Assembly (NCBI GenBank): GCA_964620055.1
Contig: CAZUGW010000004.1
Location: 1 to 29,807 of the forward strand
DNA: 29,807 nucleotides
Source: an uncultured bacterium
GTDB taxonomy: Bacteria; Armatimonadota; Hebobacteria; Hebobacterales; Hebobacteraceae
Direction of reading: 5' to 3'
Shown here: positions 20,270-28,574 of the stretch, one piece after another
Layout of the letters: each line of letters opens with the position of its first letter
How positions within the stretch are numbered: position 1 is the stretch's first letter
The notes under the pieces: model-generated
Database searches by the model: none
Told to the model about the DNA's origin: nothing
Seen by the model: only the letters and a program-made list of their open reading frames with translations
Translations under genes and position numbers: made by a program

Positions 20270-20310
20270 CTACCACTTGACATACTATCAATTGAGTGGT
20301 AGATATTATA
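20270..20310. promoter_or_regulatory. Overlapping divergent promoter region with an inverted repeat
   Basis: TTGACA on plus (20277-20282); TATAAT on minus (20310-20305) pointing at hisS; inverted repeat CTACCACT-N17-AGTGGTAG (20270-20302). Confidence 0.55.
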
Positions 20311-20540
20311 GCGGCTGAGGTGCAGTCGCCTCGGCCGACGGTTCCTTCCTCTCGTTGAGTTGTCCTACCCTTGACGGTATTCGTCTCTGACGCGCGTGGC
20401 CATGGCCGCCGATGCGCAGGAGCCCCGGACGGATGGCCTCGGTCGTCCTCCCCACGCGCCCGCTCGGAAACCGGCCTCCCGCCTGACCCGCCATCCGGCT
20501 CCCACGGTTCGTGAGTCGGCGCCCGCGGGGAGCACCTAAG
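20311..20540 (+). ncRNA. Candidate structured ncRNA forming a long rod with a central bubble (6S RNA-like)
   Basis: Nested helices symmetric about ~20426: GGTGC/GCACC (20319-23/20532-36), GCCGAC/GTCGGC (20334-39/20515-20), CGGTATTCG/CGGAAACCG (20375-83/20465-73), GCGCGTGG/CCACGCGC (20392-99/20452-59), GCCGA/TCGGT. G-U pairs favour the plus strand. Confidence 0.45.
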
Positions 20541-20586
20541 CTATCCGTCCGGTCTACCCATTATGGCCTGGACAAGGAGGCAATCG

Positions 20587-21264
20587 GTGCACGAAACCGC
20601 GCTGGACAGTAGGTCGGTCGGGAAACGGAGGCGTTCGCCCGTCCGCGTCTCGCGGCAACTCGTCGTCTTGGCAGTCGCCGTGCTTGCCTCGGTCGCCTGC
20701 CTCGTCTTCGCTCTCCACCGGGCGCGGCCCTGGGTGGAGGCGGGGCTGAAAGAGGTGCGCCCCGACCCGGAGTTCGTGGAGGGGAAGATGCGCGGCGACC
20801 TCCGCCTCGGCGCGGTGGTCAGCCTGCGAGAACTGCGGGACGGGCGCGCCCGCCCCCTGGCCGTGGACACGCGCGCGCAGCATCTCGCCGTGCTCTTCGT
20901 GGCCGGCCCCAAGCTTGCCAAGTGCCCGACGTGCGGCGTGGCGGACTTCATCGAGAAGTTCGACGAACTGGCGCGAACCCACCCTCACCTGGCGATCTAC
21001 GTGATCTGGGCCGGACAGGCCGATCTGAAGGGCAGCGTGTTCGACTCTACGGCGTACAGCCACAACCTGCATTTCGGGGTGGATCCACAGCTCGCGCTGG
21101 CCAAGAGCTTCAACGCCTTCTTCTTCCCCCGGGGCTATCTGCTCTCCGGGAAGGGAGAGCTGCGATACACGGCTCCCTTCGGGGTCGAGGCCAAGGACGT
21201 AGTCGCGGCGATCCGCGCCCTTCTCCCGGAAGCGGCGCCGACACCTGGAAAGGAGCGCACCTGA
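20587..21264 (+). CDS. Membrane-anchored thioredoxin-fold (redoxin/TlpA-like) protein with CPTC, 225 aa
   Basis: Basic N-terminus plus TM, VLFVAG...KCPTC, HFGVDPQLALAKSFNAFFFPRGYLLSGKGELRY (cis-Pro region); AGGAGG before GTG 20587. Confidence 0.8.
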   Translation: MHETALDSRSVGKRRRSPVRVSRQLVVLAVAVLASVACLVFALHRARPWVEAGLKEVRPDPEFVEGKMRGDLRLGAVVSLRELRDGRARPLAVDTRAQHLAVLFVAGPKLAKCPTCGVADFIEKFDELARTHPHLAIYVIWAGQADLKGSVFDSTAYSHNLHFGVDPQLALAKSFNAFFFPRGYLLSGKGELRYTAPFGVEAKDVVAAIRALLPEAAPTPGKERT

Positions 21265-21908
21265 TGGAGCACCCGGAGAAGCCGTCCTCCCGATCTTCCT
21301 ACGTGGCGGCGGTGATGACCTTTGTGATGGGGGGCTTGCTCACCGCCTCGCTGCTGATCACGCTCTACGGCCCCACCTACAGACAGGTGGCGGAGTCGGG
21401 GGCCTACGCGGCCGAAGAGAAGAAGGTGTGGGGGCACCACCTGACGGAGGCGCCGGAGACCGCGGTGCAGTGCTCCGCCAACCTGCTAAAGCTGCATGCC
21501 GCCATCAAGGCTTACGAGAAAGAACACGGGTATCTGCCGGTCGCGACCAAGAAAGGAAACGGACTGTTGGGGCTGCTGCTAAGGCCCTACCTTGGCAGAG
21601 ATGCCAGTTGTCTCATCTGCCCCGCGGACCCCACGAAGGGGCTCCACTACGGCGACAAGGAACACCCCCAGAGCTACCTCTATGGATACTCGGAAGTGGT
21701 ATTCGAGAGAAACCACGGACGCAAACTCCCGCTGGCGCCTGACTCACCCCTGGTCTTGTGCCGTCACCACACCAAAGGCGTGCTCATCCTCCGCTACGAC
21801 GGGACCGTCGAGTTGGCGCCGGAGGGCAGGTACAGCGAGATCCGGGTGCGCTTTGCCGACGAGCCGAAGCAGGGCGCGACCCTGGGCTCACTATCACACA
21901 CGCCCTAA
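21264..21908 (+). CDS. Single-TM protein with a DUF1559-like / H-X9-DG domain, 214 aa
   Basis: TGATG overlap with the redoxin gene; QCSANLLKLHAAIKAYEKEHGYLP, LICPADP, QSYLY, HTKGVLILRYDGTV (H-x9-DG). Confidence 0.75.
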   Translation: MEHPEKPSSRSSYVAAVMTFVMGGLLTASLLITLYGPTYRQVAESGAYAAEEKKVWGHHLTEAPETAVQCSANLLKLHAAIKAYEKEHGYLPVATKKGNGLLGLLLRPYLGRDASCLICPADPTKGLHYGDKEHPQSYLYGYSEVVFERNHGRKLPLAPDSPLVLCRHHTKGVLILRYDGTVELAPEGRYSEIRVRFADEPKQGATLGSLSHTP

Positions 21909-21928
21909 GGGGCGAAAGGAGGCAGGAG

Positions 21929-22228
21929 ATGCTGAAGTTGAAGTTGCGGGAAGTGGCAGGAGCCGCGCTGGTGGCGATGGCCGCGCTCGGCGTAGGCCAG
22001 CAGGTGGGCGCCTACACCATCTGTGAGGACAACATCATGGGCGGCAACTGCAACTACGTGGGCTCGTTCAGCAAGACGTGCTGCGTGGACGACGGCACGG
22101 GCTACAAGTACTTGACCTCCCTCACGGACAAGTACCAGAGGGGCACGGCGGTGTACTGGTCCGGGTACGACTTTAGCGGTACCTGGGGCGGGTCGTGCCT
22201 CCCGTCCACGCCGCGCACTTGCTGCTAG
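21929..22228 (+). CDS. Small secreted cysteine-rich peptide, 99 aa (28-aa signal + 71-aa mature part, 7 Cys)
   Basis: AAAGGAGG and GGAG before ATG 21929; signal MLKLKLREVAGAALVAMAALGVGQQVGA; mature YTIC-x8-C-x9-CC-x37-C-x7-CC; strong hairpin right after the stop. Confidence 0.8.
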   Translation: MLKLKLREVAGAALVAMAALGVGQQVGAYTICEDNIMGGNCNYVGSFSKTCCVDDGTGYKYLTSLTDKYQRGTAVYWSGYDFSGTWGGSCLPSTPRTCC

Positions 22229-22246
22229 TCCTCTCGTGAGGTGCGT

Positions 22247-22274
22247 CAGCGGCGAGCCGCCCGGCTCGCCGCTG
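22247..22274 (+). terminator. Hairpin ending the redoxin-peptide operon
   Basis: 12-bp perfect stem cagcggcgagcc/ggctcgccgctg with no clear U-tract. Confidence 0.55.
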
Positions 22275-22411
22275 GCGATCTTGCCTCGGTCGTCTCCCCC
22301 TCCCTTCCCCTGGCTCCGTTCGATGGCGGCAAGCCTCTTGCCTAATCCCTCCGGTTGTCCTAGAATCAGCCGGCGTGGGTTTCCGCGTCGCCGACAAAGG
22401 AGGCGGCCGCG

Positions 22412-23086
22412 ATGCCAGTTGATTGGTCATTGGTTGCGTACTGGGTGTGTTTCTCCATCGGCGCCGCCTATGCCACGGTCACCGCGTTCTTGGGCGGGTT
22501 CTTCGGCATGGCTCACCATATCGGGGACTTCGGGGCCGGGCACGTGGACATGGGCCACGAATACGGCGCGGGGGGCCACGACGCCTCGGGGCATGGGGAG
22601 GCTTTCGGAGGTCCGAGCGAAACCGAGCCGGTGATCTCCCCGCTCTCGCCGGCGACCATCTCCGTGTTCCTGACGGTCTTTGGCGGCGTGGGGATCATCA
22701 CCACCACGCTCTTCCGCATGAAGCTGCTGCTGACCCTTCCGATCTCGCTCGCCTCGGGATTCGCGGTGGCCGGCCTGGTGCTCGTGCTCTTCTATCATCT
22801 GTTCACCAAGGTGCAGGCCTCCAGCGAGACGCGGGTGGCGGAGGTGGTGGGGTTGAGCGGAGAGGTGACGGTGCCCATCCCGGCGGGCGGGATGGGCGAG
22901 GTGGCCTATGTCTGCCGTGGCGCGCGCATGGTAGCCTCAGCGCGGACGGCGGAGGGGGAGGGTCTGCCGCGGCATGCGGTGGTGCGGATCGCGCGGTACG
23001 TGGGCGGCACGCTGTACGTGGAGCCGCGGTCGGCGGCGGAAGGCGGACCTACCCCTCCGGAGGAAAGCGGACCGCTGAAGGACTGA
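22412..23086 (+). CDS. NfeD-like (YuaF-type) membrane protein with a C-terminal OB fold
   Basis: Several TMs, a His/Gly-rich loop, ISPATISVFLTVFGGVG, GEVTVPIPAGGMGEV...SARTAEGEGLPRHAVVRI; directly upstream of flotillin. Confidence 0.85.
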   Translation: MPVDWSLVAYWVCFSIGAAYATVTAFLGGFFGMAHHIGDFGAGHVDMGHEYGAGGHDASGHGEAFGGPSETEPVISPLSPATISVFLTVFGGVGIITTTLFRMKLLLTLPISLASGFAVAGLVLVLFYHLFTKVQASSETRVAEVVGLSGEVTVPIPAGGMGEVAYVCRGARMVASARTAEGEGLPRHAVVRIARYVGGTLYVEPRSAAEGGPTPPEESGPLKD

Positions 23087-23185
23087 GGCGGCGCGCCTCG
23101 GGGGGCGAGGTGGGGGTCGCGACAAGACTAGGACGACGATGTCCCGAGGCCGCGTCTCGGGACACGAGAGCGAATGGAGGAGAGT

Positions 23186-24694
23186 ATGCCGATTCTGCAA
23201 AACCCAGGCATGTTGGCGCCGTGGATCCTCGGGGTCACGGTCGCCGTCGTGATCATCTTCATCGTTACCTATGCCAGCCGGTACGTGAAGGCCGGCCCGA
23301 ACGAGGTGCTGGTGATCTCCGGCCGTCGCCGGGCAATTGTCTCGGAGGACGGAAGGCACCAGTCGGTAGGCTTCCGCATCCGCGTGGGCGGCGGCGCGTT
23401 CGTGTGGCCTATCTTCGAGCGCGTGGATCTCTTGTCGCTCGAGCTGATGACCCTGGAGGTGAAGACGCCGGAGGTCTACACCGAGGCCGGCGTGCCCATC
23501 ATCGTGGATGGGGTAGCGCAGACCAAGGTACAGAGCACCGACCTGGCGATTCGGAACGCGGCGGAGCGCTTTCTGGGAATGAGCCGGCAGGAGGTGGCGA
23601 ACATCGCCCTCCAGACCCTGGAAGGGCACCTGCGGGCGATCGTCGGCACGATGACGGTGGAGCAGGTCTATAAGAACCGGGACATGTTCGCGCAGAGAGT
23701 GCAGGAGGTCTCAGCCAGCGACCTCGCCAACATGGGTCTGGTGATTGACTCCTTCACGATCCGCGACATTCGGGATTCGCACGGCTACCTGGACGCCCTG
23801 GGTAAGCCGAGCATCGCCCAGGTGAAGCGGGATGCCACCATCGGGGAGGCGGAGGCGATGCGAGACTCCAACATCCGCTCCGCCGCCGCGAAGCAGGCCG
23901 GAGAGATCGCGCGGATCGCGGCCGAAACGAAAATCGCCGAGGCGAACCGGGACTACGAGATGCGACTGGCGGAGTACAAGGCCTCGGTCCAGGAGAAGCA
24001 GGCCGGGGCCGACCTGGCCTATGACCTGCAGAAGTTCAAGACCCAGCAGGCGGTGCGCGCCGAGGAAGTCCAGGTCCAGGTAATCGAGAAAGAGAAGCAG
24101 ATCGAGGTCCAGGAGAAGGAGATCCTGCGCCGGGAGAAAGAGCTGGTCGCGACGATCGAGAAGCCGGCTTCGGCCGAGCGCCAGCGGATCCAGACCCTGG
24201 CCGAGGCCGAGCAGTACCGCCTCAGCACCACCGCCTCCGGCCAGGCCGAGGCCACCCGCGCCATCGGTACAGCGGAGGCCGACGCCAACCGCGCCCGCGG
24301 TCTCGCGCAGGCGGACGTGATCAAGGCCCAGGGTTTCTCCGAGGCCGAGGCCATGGCAAAGAAGGCCGACGCCTGGCGTCAGTACAACGAGGCGGCGATC
24401 ACGCAGATGTTCGTGGACAAGCTGCCCGAGATCGCCTCTGCGGTGTCGGCGCCGCTGGCCAAGATGGAGAAGATAGTGGTGATCTCCGCCGGCGGTGACG
24501 GGCACACCGGGGCGGGAGCGAGCAAGGTGACCCGCGACGTGGCGGACATCATCGCCCAAATCCCCGCGGTGATCGAGGCCCTCACCGGCGTGAAGCTCCA
24601 GGAGATCGTCCAGCGCCTGCCGGGGGTGGCGTCGGCCGCGGCCCAGTCGCCGCAAGCGCCGCAAGCTGACGTTGCCAAGGGCACGGAGGCGTAA
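23186..24694 (+). CDS. Flotillin family SPFH protein (FloT/YuaG-like)
   Basis: YVKAGPNEVLVISG, GGGAFVWPIFE, TLEGHLRAIVGTMTVEQVY, DSHGYLDALG, EA/AE-rich coiled coil, KLPEIASAVSAPL; GGAGG before ATG 23186. Confidence 0.95.
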   Translation: MPILQNPGMLAPWILGVTVAVVIIFIVTYASRYVKAGPNEVLVISGRRRAIVSEDGRHQSVGFRIRVGGGAFVWPIFERVDLLSLELMTLEVKTPEVYTEAGVPIIVDGVAQTKVQSTDLAIRNAAERFLGMSRQEVANIALQTLEGHLRAIVGTMTVEQVYKNRDMFAQRVQEVSASDLANMGLVIDSFTIRDIRDSHGYLDALGKPSIAQVKRDATIGEAEAMRDSNIRSAAAKQAGEIARIAAETKIAEANRDYEMRLAEYKASVQEKQAGADLAYDLQKFKTQQAVRAEEVQVQVIEKEKQIEVQEKEILRREKELVATIEKPASAERQRIQTLAEAEQYRLSTTASGQAEATRAIGTAEADANRARGLAQADVIKAQGFSEAEAMAKKADAWRQYNEAAITQMFVDKLPEIASAVSAPLAKMEKIVVISAGGDGHTGAGASKVTRDVADIIAQIPAVIEALTGVKLQEIVQRLPGVASAAAQSPQAPQADVAKGTEA

Positions 24695-25080: not shown

Positions 25081-26814
<1,734 letters not shown>

Positions 26815-26820
26815 ACTCGG

Positions 26821-28035
26821 ATGGCAGTTTTCAGCTATCTCGCGCGCGATATTGACGGCGGGCTCGTCACCGGCACCACCGCCGGCCTGGACGAAGTGAT
26901 CGTCCGTCGGGAGTTGCGGGACAATGGCCTTTACGTGGTTTCGCTCACCGAGCGGGTGGAGCGGGAGGCGCTGCGGGACCGACTCGCCCGGCTGCGCGGG
27001 GTGAAGCTCGGCGATCTGGTCGTGTTCAGCCAGCAACTCGCCGCTATGGTGTCGGCGGGCATTCCCATCCTCGAGTGCCTGCACGAGTTGATCGAGGAAA
27101 CCGACAACCCGGCCCTCCGTCGCGCTGTGATGAAGGTGACGCAGGACATTCAGGCCGGCTCTACCTTCAGCCAGGCCCTGGCCCGGCATCGGAGGGTTTT
27201 CCCCGAGTTGTTCGTGGCGCTGGTGCACGCCGGCGAGATCGGCGGAGTGCTCGAGGCCAGCCTGCACAACATCGCCGACAACCTCGACAAGGAAATGGAG
27301 TTGCGCGAAAAGGTCAAGTCGGCCTTCGTCTATCCCCTCGCGGTGCTGCTGGTGGCCGCCGGGGTGGTCACCTTCATGCTGCTCTGCGTGATCCCGGTCT
27401 TCCAGCGGGTGTACACGCAGTTCCACGCGGAGTTGCCCGCCCCCACTCAAGCCCTCATCGCGGTGAGCATGTTCGTCTCGCACTTCTGGTGGATCGCGCT
27501 GCTCGGGCTGACCGGCCTGGGGCTCGGGTTTCGCGCCTTCATCGCCACCGAGAAGGGCAAGATGCTCTGGGACCGCGCCAAGCTCCGCCTGCCCCTGTTG
27601 GGCCGGCTCATCCGCAAGATCGTCGTCACGCGCTTCGTTCGCACCCTGGGCGCACTGGTCGGCGCGGGCGTGCCGCTGCTGGCTGCGCTCGAGACTTCGG
27701 CCCGGGTGGCGAACAACGCCGAGTTCACCGTCGCCGTCAAGAAGATCTCGGAGGAGGTGTCCCGCGGCGCGTCGCTTTCCGCACCGCTGCGGGCCAGCCA
27801 CCGCTTCCCGAATCTGGTCCCTCGCCTCGTCCAGTCCGGCGAGGAGTCCGGGGATCTGGAGGGGATGCTGAATAAGATCGCGCACTTTTTCGACCGCGAC
27901 ATCGAGCACTCGGTCCGGCGTCTCACGGCGCTCATGGAACCGGTGCTCACCATCGTCCTGGGAGGGATCGTCGGCGCCATAGTGATTTCGTTGTACATGC
28001 CAATCTTCACCCTGGCCGCCGTGATTCATCGGTGA
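26821..28035 (+). CDS. pilC: Type IV pilus / T2SS inner membrane platform protein (PilC/GspF family)
   Basis: MAVFSYLARD..G, FSQQLAAMVSAGIPIL, ALVHAGEIGGVLE, VKSAFVYP, QSGEESGDLEGML, ALMEPVL...ISLYMPIF. Confidence 0.95.
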   Translation: MAVFSYLARDIDGGLVTGTTAGLDEVIVRRELRDNGLYVVSLTERVEREALRDRLARLRGVKLGDLVVFSQQLAAMVSAGIPILECLHELIEETDNPALRRAVMKVTQDIQAGSTFSQALARHRRVFPELFVALVHAGEIGGVLEASLHNIADNLDKEMELREKVKSAFVYPLAVLLVAAGVVTFMLLCVIPVFQRVYTQFHAELPAPTQALIAVSMFVSHFWWIALLGLTGLGLGFRAFIATEKGKMLWDRAKLRLPLLGRLIRKIVVTRFVRTLGALVGAGVPLLAALETSARVANNAEFTVAVKKISEEVSRGASLSAPLRASHRFPNLVPRLVQSGEESGDLEGMLNKIAHFFDRDIEHSVRRLTALMEPVLTIVLGGIVGAIVISLYMPIFTLAAVIHR

Positions 28036-28151
28036 AGAGCCGCGGGGACCTGACCGGAAAGGGGGTGGAACGAGCCGGAAGGTGGGTCGGGGGATCGTGG
28101 GCGTGGCGGCAAGAGATGCGAAGTCAAATACCCTTGTGGAGGAAAGGCGAG

Positions 28152-28574
28152 ATGAAGCTGTTCCGAGGACGCTCCGGTTTCACGCTGATCGAGTTGCTGG
28201 TAGTGATCCTCATCCTGGCCGTGTTGATGGCGATTGCGCTTCCGCTCTACCTACGGGCGGTCCGCGATTCCGAGCGGCAGACCTGCCGCAGCAACATGCA
28301 GACCGTCGCCAACGCGGAGCAGGCCCACCGGGTCCGCAGCGCCGGGCACACCTATGTCCCGGTCACCGGCTCTACTTCCGACCTCTCACTCCTGATCGGC
28401 CCCACCGAGGACCTGCAGGCCTTGCCGCAGTGTCCCTCGGACACCGACCTGGCCACCCTCGACGACTACACGGTGGAGGTGCTGGAGACCGGCGGACTGG
28501 TCACGGGCATCACGATCACCTGCAATCGCGATGCCACCCACGGGAGTTTCACGCCCGGCGTGGACTCCCAGTAA
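28152..28574 (+). CDS. Type IV pilin / pseudopilin, 140 aa
   Basis: Class III signal RGRSG|FTLIELLVVILILAVLMAIALP (G-1, F1, E5); C-terminal Cys pair. Confidence 0.9.
   Translation: MKLFRGRSGFTLIELLVVILILAVLMAIALPLYLRAVRDSERQTCRSNMQTVANAEQAHRVRSAGHTYVPVTGSTSDLSLLIGPTEDLQALPQCPSDTDLATLDDYTVEVLETGGLVTGITITCNRDATHGSFTPGVDSQ

Follow-up and report, generated by a model that had tools for sequence, protein, structure and literature searches.

A Thioredoxin-Like Protein, a Pilin-Like Protein, and a Cys-Rich Mini-Protein Encoded Together in an Armatimonadota Gene Cassette

We analysed a stretch of 29,807 nucleotides (nt) from an uncultured bacterium of the Armatimonadota (family Hebobacteraceae; assembly GCA_964620055.1, contig CAZUGW010000004.1, forward strand), referred to below as the window. 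Between positions 20563 and 22228 it carries three genes, all co-directional on the plus strand, which encode a membrane-anchored thioredoxin-like protein (P0001), a pilin-like protein of the "H-X9-DG" type (P0002), and a small exported Cys-rich peptide (P0003). This trio is a reduced copy of a previously undescribed gene cassette of the Armatimonadota. The peptide represents a new family and, in co-folding, its mature part is predicted to bind the pilin-fold head of P0002. The reading that we favour, at a little over even confidence, is that the peptide is a pilin-docked, disulfide-stabilised partner or cargo mini-protein with a private oxidoreductase, and that in the canonical cassettes it could be loaded on a type IV filament. 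The first-pass annotation of the trio, made from the letters of the window, missed that P0002 has the marks of a degenerate type IV pilin, that canonical cassettes hold a fourth gene, and that a filament gene cluster lies 2.9 kilobases (kb) downstream.

The Gene Cassette

The P0001 gene (20563..21264, +) encodes 233 amino acids (aa), or 225 aa from an alternative GTG start at 20587, and overlaps the P0002 gene (21264..21908, +; 214 aa) by one base, the P0002 start lying inside the P0001 stop (TGATG at 21262-21266). P0002 was delimited as an open reading frame (ORF) and is described below from the profiles of its relatives and an AlphaFold2 (AF2) model. An intergenic gap of 20 nt (21909..21928, +), with a ribosome-binding site GGAGG at 21918-21922, 6 nt before the ATG, leads to the P0003 gene (21929..22228, +). 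Its 99-aa precursor consists of a Sec-type signal of about residues 1-28 (21929-22012) and a mature part of 71 aa (22013-22225). The operon likely ends at a GC-rich hairpin 3' of the peptide gene (22236..22283, +) with a perfect GC-rich core of 15 base pairs (-42.3 kcal/mol, z -4.56); this hairpin has no U tract, and the consensus terminator scan made no call there. The frame of P0003 can be extended 5' into the end of the P0002 gene to give a 156-aa ORF from 21758. This extension is spurious, since it overlaps the 3' end of the P0002 gene and since the first start after a stop in the orthologous locus L002 is the ATG of the 99-aa form. The first-pass annotation had described the same compact operon with its overlap, gap, and hairpin, a membrane-anchored CPTC protein of thioredoxin fold, a single-transmembrane (TM) H-X9-DG protein that lacks a prepilin leader, a 99-aa precursor with seven Cys in its mature part, and a misleading longer ORF at 21758; these descriptions held up throughout.

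The orthologous locus L002, a metagenome contig from a second species, carries a syntenic trio at the corresponding site, flanked by hisS/aspS and an NfeD-like gene. The ratios of nonsynonymous to synonymous substitution rates (dN/dS) against this locus were 0.30 for the redoxin gene, 0.145 for the pilin-like gene, and 0.32 for the peptide gene, within which the signal gave 0.04 and the mature part 0.40. Word-index searches retrieved nothing beyond 76-88% orthologs of P0002 and of the peptide, and the use of the peptide profile A1 did not add to these. A phmmer pass with the peptide over 1.84 billion representatives gave five further peptide clusters (E 5e-15 to 1e-5), and a peptide profile search over 400 genomes of the phylum gave five further genomes. 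The flanks of the peptide loci were then scanned with hidden Markov models of the components, which were built here. The components of the trio occur together in at least 12 further loci, all in or assigned to the Armatimonadota and including Candidatus (Ca.) Fervidibacter, and all peptide relatives with readable context adjoin cassette partners (L002, L025, L026, L027, L029, L035-L040, and L045). The trio is beyond chance, because it is syntenic in L002 with dN/dS of 0.145-0.32 and because its components stand together in these 12 or more loci; on the evidence of sequence, the three genes are real and linked. The search for homologous trios and paralogous peptides that the first-pass annotation had suggested thus yielded both, the latter in L026. 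Peptide homologs lacking the partners and Cys positions not conserved, which it had named as signs of error, were not what we observed: the relatives with readable context adjoin the partners and keep six Cys.

Two matches were rejected. A 3128-aa G2F-repeat protein (P0009) found by phmmer is a chance match multiplied by its repeats and keeps one of the four Cys of the matched stretch, and a peptide match in G030 (E 4.8e-4) falls within another gene and in a different frame from it. Pattern scans with the fourth-gene profile added one genome locus and one new metagenome locus only, and the Atlas feature search gave no usable match.

In four genomes (G131, G203, G225, and G232) and a Fervidibacter contig, the gene order is thioredoxin-like protein, pilin-like protein, peptide, and fourth TM protein. 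L026 has this canonical order but two tandem peptide paralogs (P0007 and P0008; 3628-4402), both with six Cys. The same parts stand in a different order in L027 and L029, and L025 is a fragment with the pilin-like, peptide, and fourth genes. The flanks vary by genus (transketolase, phosphate transport, ferrochelatase, aminoacyl-tRNA synthetases), and because the flanking genes differ between genera the cassette is the conserved unit. The fourth protein is paralogous to the pilin-like one (hhalign probability 96%, E 2.7e-9), with which it shares the motif order C-x-x-N-L, C-P-x-D-P, S-Y, C-P-x-H, D/G. Neither the window nor L002 has the fourth gene.

More divergent copies were also found. In a soil metagenome contig (L045, 25-1499), a divergent peptide with C-N-A in place of C-x-D and with CC at its end is followed by a fourth pilin-head-like protein fused in frame to a thioredoxin-like domain (CGSC); this fusion argues that the redoxin is physically placed with the pilin-like proteins. 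Two loci of genome G020 have no peptide gene: in L041 (6107-9829), five short prepilin-type paralogs stand in tandem around a thioredoxin-like gene whose product has no Cys, and L042 (5936-7799) holds a Cys-less redoxin, a pilin-like gene, and a fourth gene. In genome G069 (L039, 7036-10896), the gene after a second prepilin-type gene encodes an unrelated exported protein of 121 aa with 13 Cys, and the next one a 664-aa Thioredoxin_8-NHL repeat protein with CINC.

These copies bear on an alternative in which the thioredoxin-like and pilin-like membrane proteins form the core, as a structural or chaperone complex, and the peptide is an optional, lineage-specific accessory or client that plays no filament role of its own. 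The two G020 cassettes, with Cys-less thioredoxin-like proteins and pilin-like proteins and no peptide, are what it would predict; the fusion of the fourth protein to a redoxin domain in L045 and the loss of prepilin leader and fourth gene in the window clade fit it as well. We nevertheless consider it unlikely, as the peptide is kept in at least five lineages, usually between two pilin-like genes, has invariant Cys and motifs, and is predicted to meet its partner through conserved strands on both sides.

The Exported Peptide

The signal of P0003 has a basic start, a hydrophobic core of 14 residues, and an A-x-A-like cleavage site (V-G-A). Gly, Thr, Tyr, and Ser are abundant in the mature part. 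The Cys residues are at 32, 41, 51, 52, 90, 98, and 99 (C-x8-C-x9-CC-x37-C-x7-CC). Among 12 aligned peptides, C32, C41, C51, C52, C90, and D34 are invariant and C98 and P92 nearly so, the single exception at C98 resembling an alignment shift. The terminal C99 is found in a few members only, and several members have an extra Cys pair instead. The odd seventh Cys, which the first-pass annotation had taken as a feature that could allow dimerisation, metal binding, or modification, is thus a clade-specific terminal addition, and six Cys are what the family conserves. From these features P0003 is a putative Sec-exported, disulfide-rich small protein with six conserved Cys.

Pfam and NCBIfam scans with the peptide gave no match. 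In its AF2 model, which has a predicted local distance difference test score (pLDDT) of 67, three or four long strands make up a beta-rich structure; Foldseek with this model of pLDDT 67 found nothing at E 0.001 or better in the PDB and the AFDB clusters. A lipoprotein reading was rejected, the residues preceding the first Cys forming no lipobox in most members (alignment A2, judged by eye).

The first-pass annotation had seen in P0003 an exported defensin- or knottin-like peptide, comparable to disulfide-bonded bacteriocins and folded by its own oxidoreductase, with the H-X9-DG protein as display, immunity, or receptor partner. The export signal, the conserved Cys, and the co-occurrence of CxxC and peptide uphold the general idea of an exported Cys-rich peptide with its own oxidoreductase. 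A secreted antimicrobial peptide with a dedicated oxidising enzyme and the H-X9-DG protein as immunity or receptor protein is, in our judgement, improbable. It would agree with a small, exported, Cys-rich product adjoining a private thiol-disulfide oxidoreductase, with a mature part that evolves faster (dN/dS 0.40) than the signal (0.04) and the neighbouring pilin-like gene (0.145), and with the rare and patchy occurrence of the family. The analogy itself lacks support on several counts: the fold searches with the peptide model matched neither defensins nor knottins nor any toxin; the window has none of the usual companions (a double-glycine leader, a C39 peptidase/ABC exporter, a glycosyltransferase, a separate immunity gene); and the gene is single-copy, stands among housekeeping genes, is conserved across families of the phylum, and is under purifying selection (dN/dS <1). 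Its partner, moreover, is a pilin-fold protein predicted to bind through conserved strands; the passing co-fold backs the display or receptor role among those first suggested.

The Pilin-Like Protein and Its Predicted Complex

Besides an N-in TM helix, P0002 carries a C-x-x-N-L motif of the DUF1559 type, the motif CPADP, and a clade-specific insertion of 19 aa. The motif H169-x9-D179-G180, read from the sequence at 21768-21803 (+), is literally present; among the relatives H169, R177, and G180 are nearly invariant, and the motif spacing and the Asp vary. A canonical prepilin leader, with matches to N_methyl (PF07963), GspG, and TIGR02532, was found in 11 of the 14 relatives. The criterion used for such a class III signal peptide was a Gly, then hydrophobic residues, with Glu at +5. 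P0002, its ortholog P0005, and P0013 do not match PF07963 or TIGR02532; in these three the Gly/Glu motif is replaced and the 19-aa insertion gained. DUF1559 (PF07596) is matched by 10 of the 14 relatives (E up to 0.01). P0002 itself falls below the gathering cut-off of this family (17.7 versus 23.3 bits; E 0.004, residues 68-97 only), and the NCBIfam model TIGR04294 matched neither P0002 nor its relatives.

The profile A6 matches structures of pilins by way of the N-terminal helix. The P0002 ectodomain, in an AF2 model with pLDDT 85, agrees with the fold of a pilin head, in which helix alpha-1 packs with its C-terminal half against a beta-sheet. In VIA-align comparisons with the head model, 12 of the 13 top matches were pilins or pseudopilins (Z 4.1-6.2, root mean square deviation 2.7-4.1, 80-97 residues aligned), the best being PilA4, EpsG, PilV, ComP, and PulG (Z 5.0-6.2, 82-95 residues aligned). 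Foldseek with the P0002 model found nothing at E 0.001 or better in the PDB. P0002 is best described as a degenerate type IV pilin and a pilin-derived, membrane-tethered head.

The P0002 head was co-folded with the mature peptide and gave an ipSAE of 0.67 (0.62-0.74 in three runs), compared with 0.01 for the best control. The co-fold thereby passes: of 80 solved complexes 58 attained this mark, and of 110 mismatched pairs 2 did, counts that hold only roughly here since the alignments were made for this analysis. The runs share at least 76% of contacts, with a partner pLDDT of at least 53. The predicted interface brings together P0002 residues 190-195 (the strand after H-X9-DG), 139-146, and 165-173 with mature peptide residues 13-20 and 36-44, and these segments are conserved in both partners. 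For the peptide family no similar complex has been solved, so that the result is unlikely to be a mere reproduction of a known structure. The models predict that the peptide binds the pilin-fold head of P0002.

The Thioredoxin-Like Protein

P0001 has an N-in TM anchor at about residues 31-52, and its active-site codons for Cys-Pro-Thr-Cys (residues 121-124) were read directly off the sequence at 20923..20934 (+). The protein alone gave no Pfam or NCBIfam match. Its relatives match Thioredoxin_8, AhpC-TSA, and Redoxin, and the family profile A5 matches the structures of Etrx1/2, StoA, ResA, and TlpA (E 1e-9 to 1e-4). The CPTC is aligned with the CxxC of the relatives, the second Cys column is invariant in A5, and the dipeptide between the Cys varies (PT, PM, SA, TP, SQ, GQ, GR, GG). 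A Pro-Arg is conserved where the cis-Pro loop is expected. At the level of profiles, P0001 thus has a thioredoxin fold of the TlpA/ResA/StoA/Etrx type. The CxxC is kept in 10 of the 11 peptide-bearing cassettes that were checked, and the catalytic Cys are absent from both peptide-less G020 cassettes. That the catalytic Cys track the presence of the peptide is suggestive; the lineages are few and related, and the pattern is not a statistical one.

The nearest solved relatives of the redoxin profile (Etrx1/2, StoA, ResA, and TlpA) are extracytoplasmic reductases. They bring up another alternative, in which a TlpA-like reductase maintains the six-Cys protein in the reduced state for metal (e.g., copper) or thiol chemistry and the pilin-like protein is a membrane scaffold; TlpA, which acts on Sco and CoxB, is the model for it. 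The invariant vicinal CC of the peptide and the terminal CC in the window clade would suit such chemistry. We regard this alternative as very unlikely. The peptide lacks any metal motif rich in His or Met, and the cassettes read contain neither a CcdA/DsbD electron donor nor a cytochrome or copper gene. A beta-rich fold whose invariant Cys are even in number is consistent with structural disulfides. Oxidases of the same thioredoxin fold also exist, as in SdbA-type proteins.

Genomic Context

Type IV filament genes (25081..28574, +) start 2.9 kb downstream of the trio; they are given as context and their membership in the cassette is not implied. By domain matches they encode a T2SSE ATPase with MshEN (25081-26814, +), a T2SSF platform protein (26821-28035, +), and a prepilin with N_methyl (28032-28574, +). 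3' of the prepilin gene, an ORF of more than 425 aa that carries no assignment extends on the plus strand to 29805 and runs off the end of the window. The genome has a prepilin peptidase, many T2SSE ATPase genes, and 22 prepilin motifs. In G232, a Tad-like cluster lies 1.2 kb from the cassette.

On the 5' side of the trio, about 280 nt of non-coding sequence (20284-20562) separate the divergent hisS from the redoxin gene; this sequence is conserved in L002 and could be the leader of the operon. Directly 3' of the trio are genes for an NfeD-like membrane protein and a flotillin (Band_7/Flot; 22412-24694), and the ortholog contig likewise has an NfeD-like gene. No RNA datasets carrying the operon or its last two genes were found, the stretch being present only in DNA runs of sediment metagenomes.

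Proposed Function

In the favoured reading, the peptide would be exported by Sec and acquire three disulfides in the periplasm. The membrane-anchored CxxC protein of thioredoxin fold may form or reshuffle these disulfides and would probably do the same for the pilin-like heads. Once folded, the mini-protein is predicted to dock on the P0002 head by adding its first long beta-strand to the C-terminal strand of the head. In the canonical cassettes, which have an intact prepilin leader, a type IV filament could take up the pair and display or expel it. In the window clade, where the leader has decayed, the complex should stay tethered at the inner membrane. The final role might be adhesion, ligand capture, or signalling.

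Several points weigh against this model. The co-fold is a prediction and not a measurement, the confidence of the peptide model is moderate only (pLDDT 67), and the matches to pilin folds have modest scores (Z about 6), such as common arrangements also reach. P0002 has no prepilin cleavage motif, so that loading on a filament does not apply to the window copy as it stands; the window also has no fourth gene, and most cassettes are not adjacent to filament machinery. The peptide is no obligate partner, as G020 keeps thioredoxin-like and pilin-like genes in its absence. The redoxin copies of the G069 cassette have one Cys only despite the presence of the peptide; in this genome, a separate Thioredoxin_8-NHL protein with a CxxC is encoded 1.8 kb from the cassette. 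The nearest solved thioredoxin-like relatives are mostly reductases, and the predicted step of P0001 could run in either redox direction. Finally, the lineages are few (about five) and related.

The G069 locus, with its unrelated 13-Cys exported protein after a second pilin-like gene, points to something broader. We tentatively put forward, as a possible but doubtful generalisation, an Armatimonadota class of "pilin plus private mini-protein" cassettes, in which short pilins of the DUF1559/H-X9-DG type would serve as adaptors, each with a different disulfide-knit mini-protein that is matured by the thioredoxin-like protein of the cassette and displayed or ejected by type IV filaments. If this were true, it would be the first concrete role for H-X9-DG/DUF1559 pilin-like proteins, and the leaderless copy of the window would be a derived, membrane-tethered receptor form. 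If the binding alone holds, it shows how such proteins take up cargo. The trio is a compact and testable system, with a pilin-fold head of 150 aa, a partner of 71 aa, a predicted strand-to-strand interface, and a dedicated thioredoxin-like protein, and it adds a new family to the disulfide-rich mini-proteins of bacteria.

Comparison with Known Systems

The closest functional parallel is found in TcpB-TcpF of V. cholerae and CofB-CofJ of enterotoxigenic Escherichia coli, in which a type IVb minor pilin binds its cognate Sec-exported exoprotein (PMC9565799, PMC10120004, PMC6048534). In both those systems and the one described here, the neighbour of a pilin-type gene encodes a soluble protein whose signal peptide is of the ordinary kind; binding to the head was shown there and is predicted here. 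The canonical cassettes also resemble them in having a true prepilin leader, in a genome with filament machinery. They differ in that there is no relation of sequence or fold, the partner being about 71 aa and disulfide-rich here, and in that the cassette also encodes a thioredoxin-like protein and, as a non-cleavable paralog, a second pilin head. In the window, furthermore, the pilin leader is lost, and for the Armatimonadota proteins secretion or display is putative. We know of no minor-pilin/exoprotein pair that is accompanied both by a thioredoxin-like gene of its own and by a paralog of the pilin head.

DUF1559/prepilin-type H-X9-DG proteins (PF07596, TIGR04294) are common in Planctomycetota, Verrucomicrobiota, and Armatimonadota. 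Judging by the titles and abstracts of the papers found that mention them, no function has apparently been assigned. P0002 shares with them the C-x-x-N-L after the N-terminal helix, the C-terminal His...DG, and the pilin-type architecture, but it is much shorter than is typical, has no prepilin leader, scores below the cut-off, and does not match TIGR04294.

P0001 is like ResA, StoA, TlpA, and the pneumococcal Etrx1/2 in its thioredoxin fold (by profile), N-terminal anchor, CxxC, and conserved Pro-Arg. Unlike them, it has no Pfam match of its own, the CxxC dipeptide of its family is highly variable, and some cassette copies are Cys-less. There is no cytochrome, spore, or Msr client nearby, the proposed client being the neighbouring mini-protein. 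The sublancin cluster, sunA-sunS-sunT-bdbA-bdbB, produces a disulfide-bonded bacteriocin with dedicated oxidoreductases, and the present locus likewise encodes a Cys-rich exported peptide beside a private thiol-disulfide oxidoreductase. It has, however, a Sec signal and not a double-glycine leader, it lacks the leader peptidase/ABC exporter, glycosyltransferase, and immunity gene, and the partner has a pilin fold.

A last comparison can be made with the split pilin PilA-N/PilA-C of Geobacter. There is no homology between the two, P0002 already has a beta-sheet head, and the peptide family is Cys-rich. Nevertheless, the arrangement is alike, as in both cases a short pilin-type protein is accompanied by a separately encoded beta-rich protein that completes or extends the head, as is predicted for P0003.

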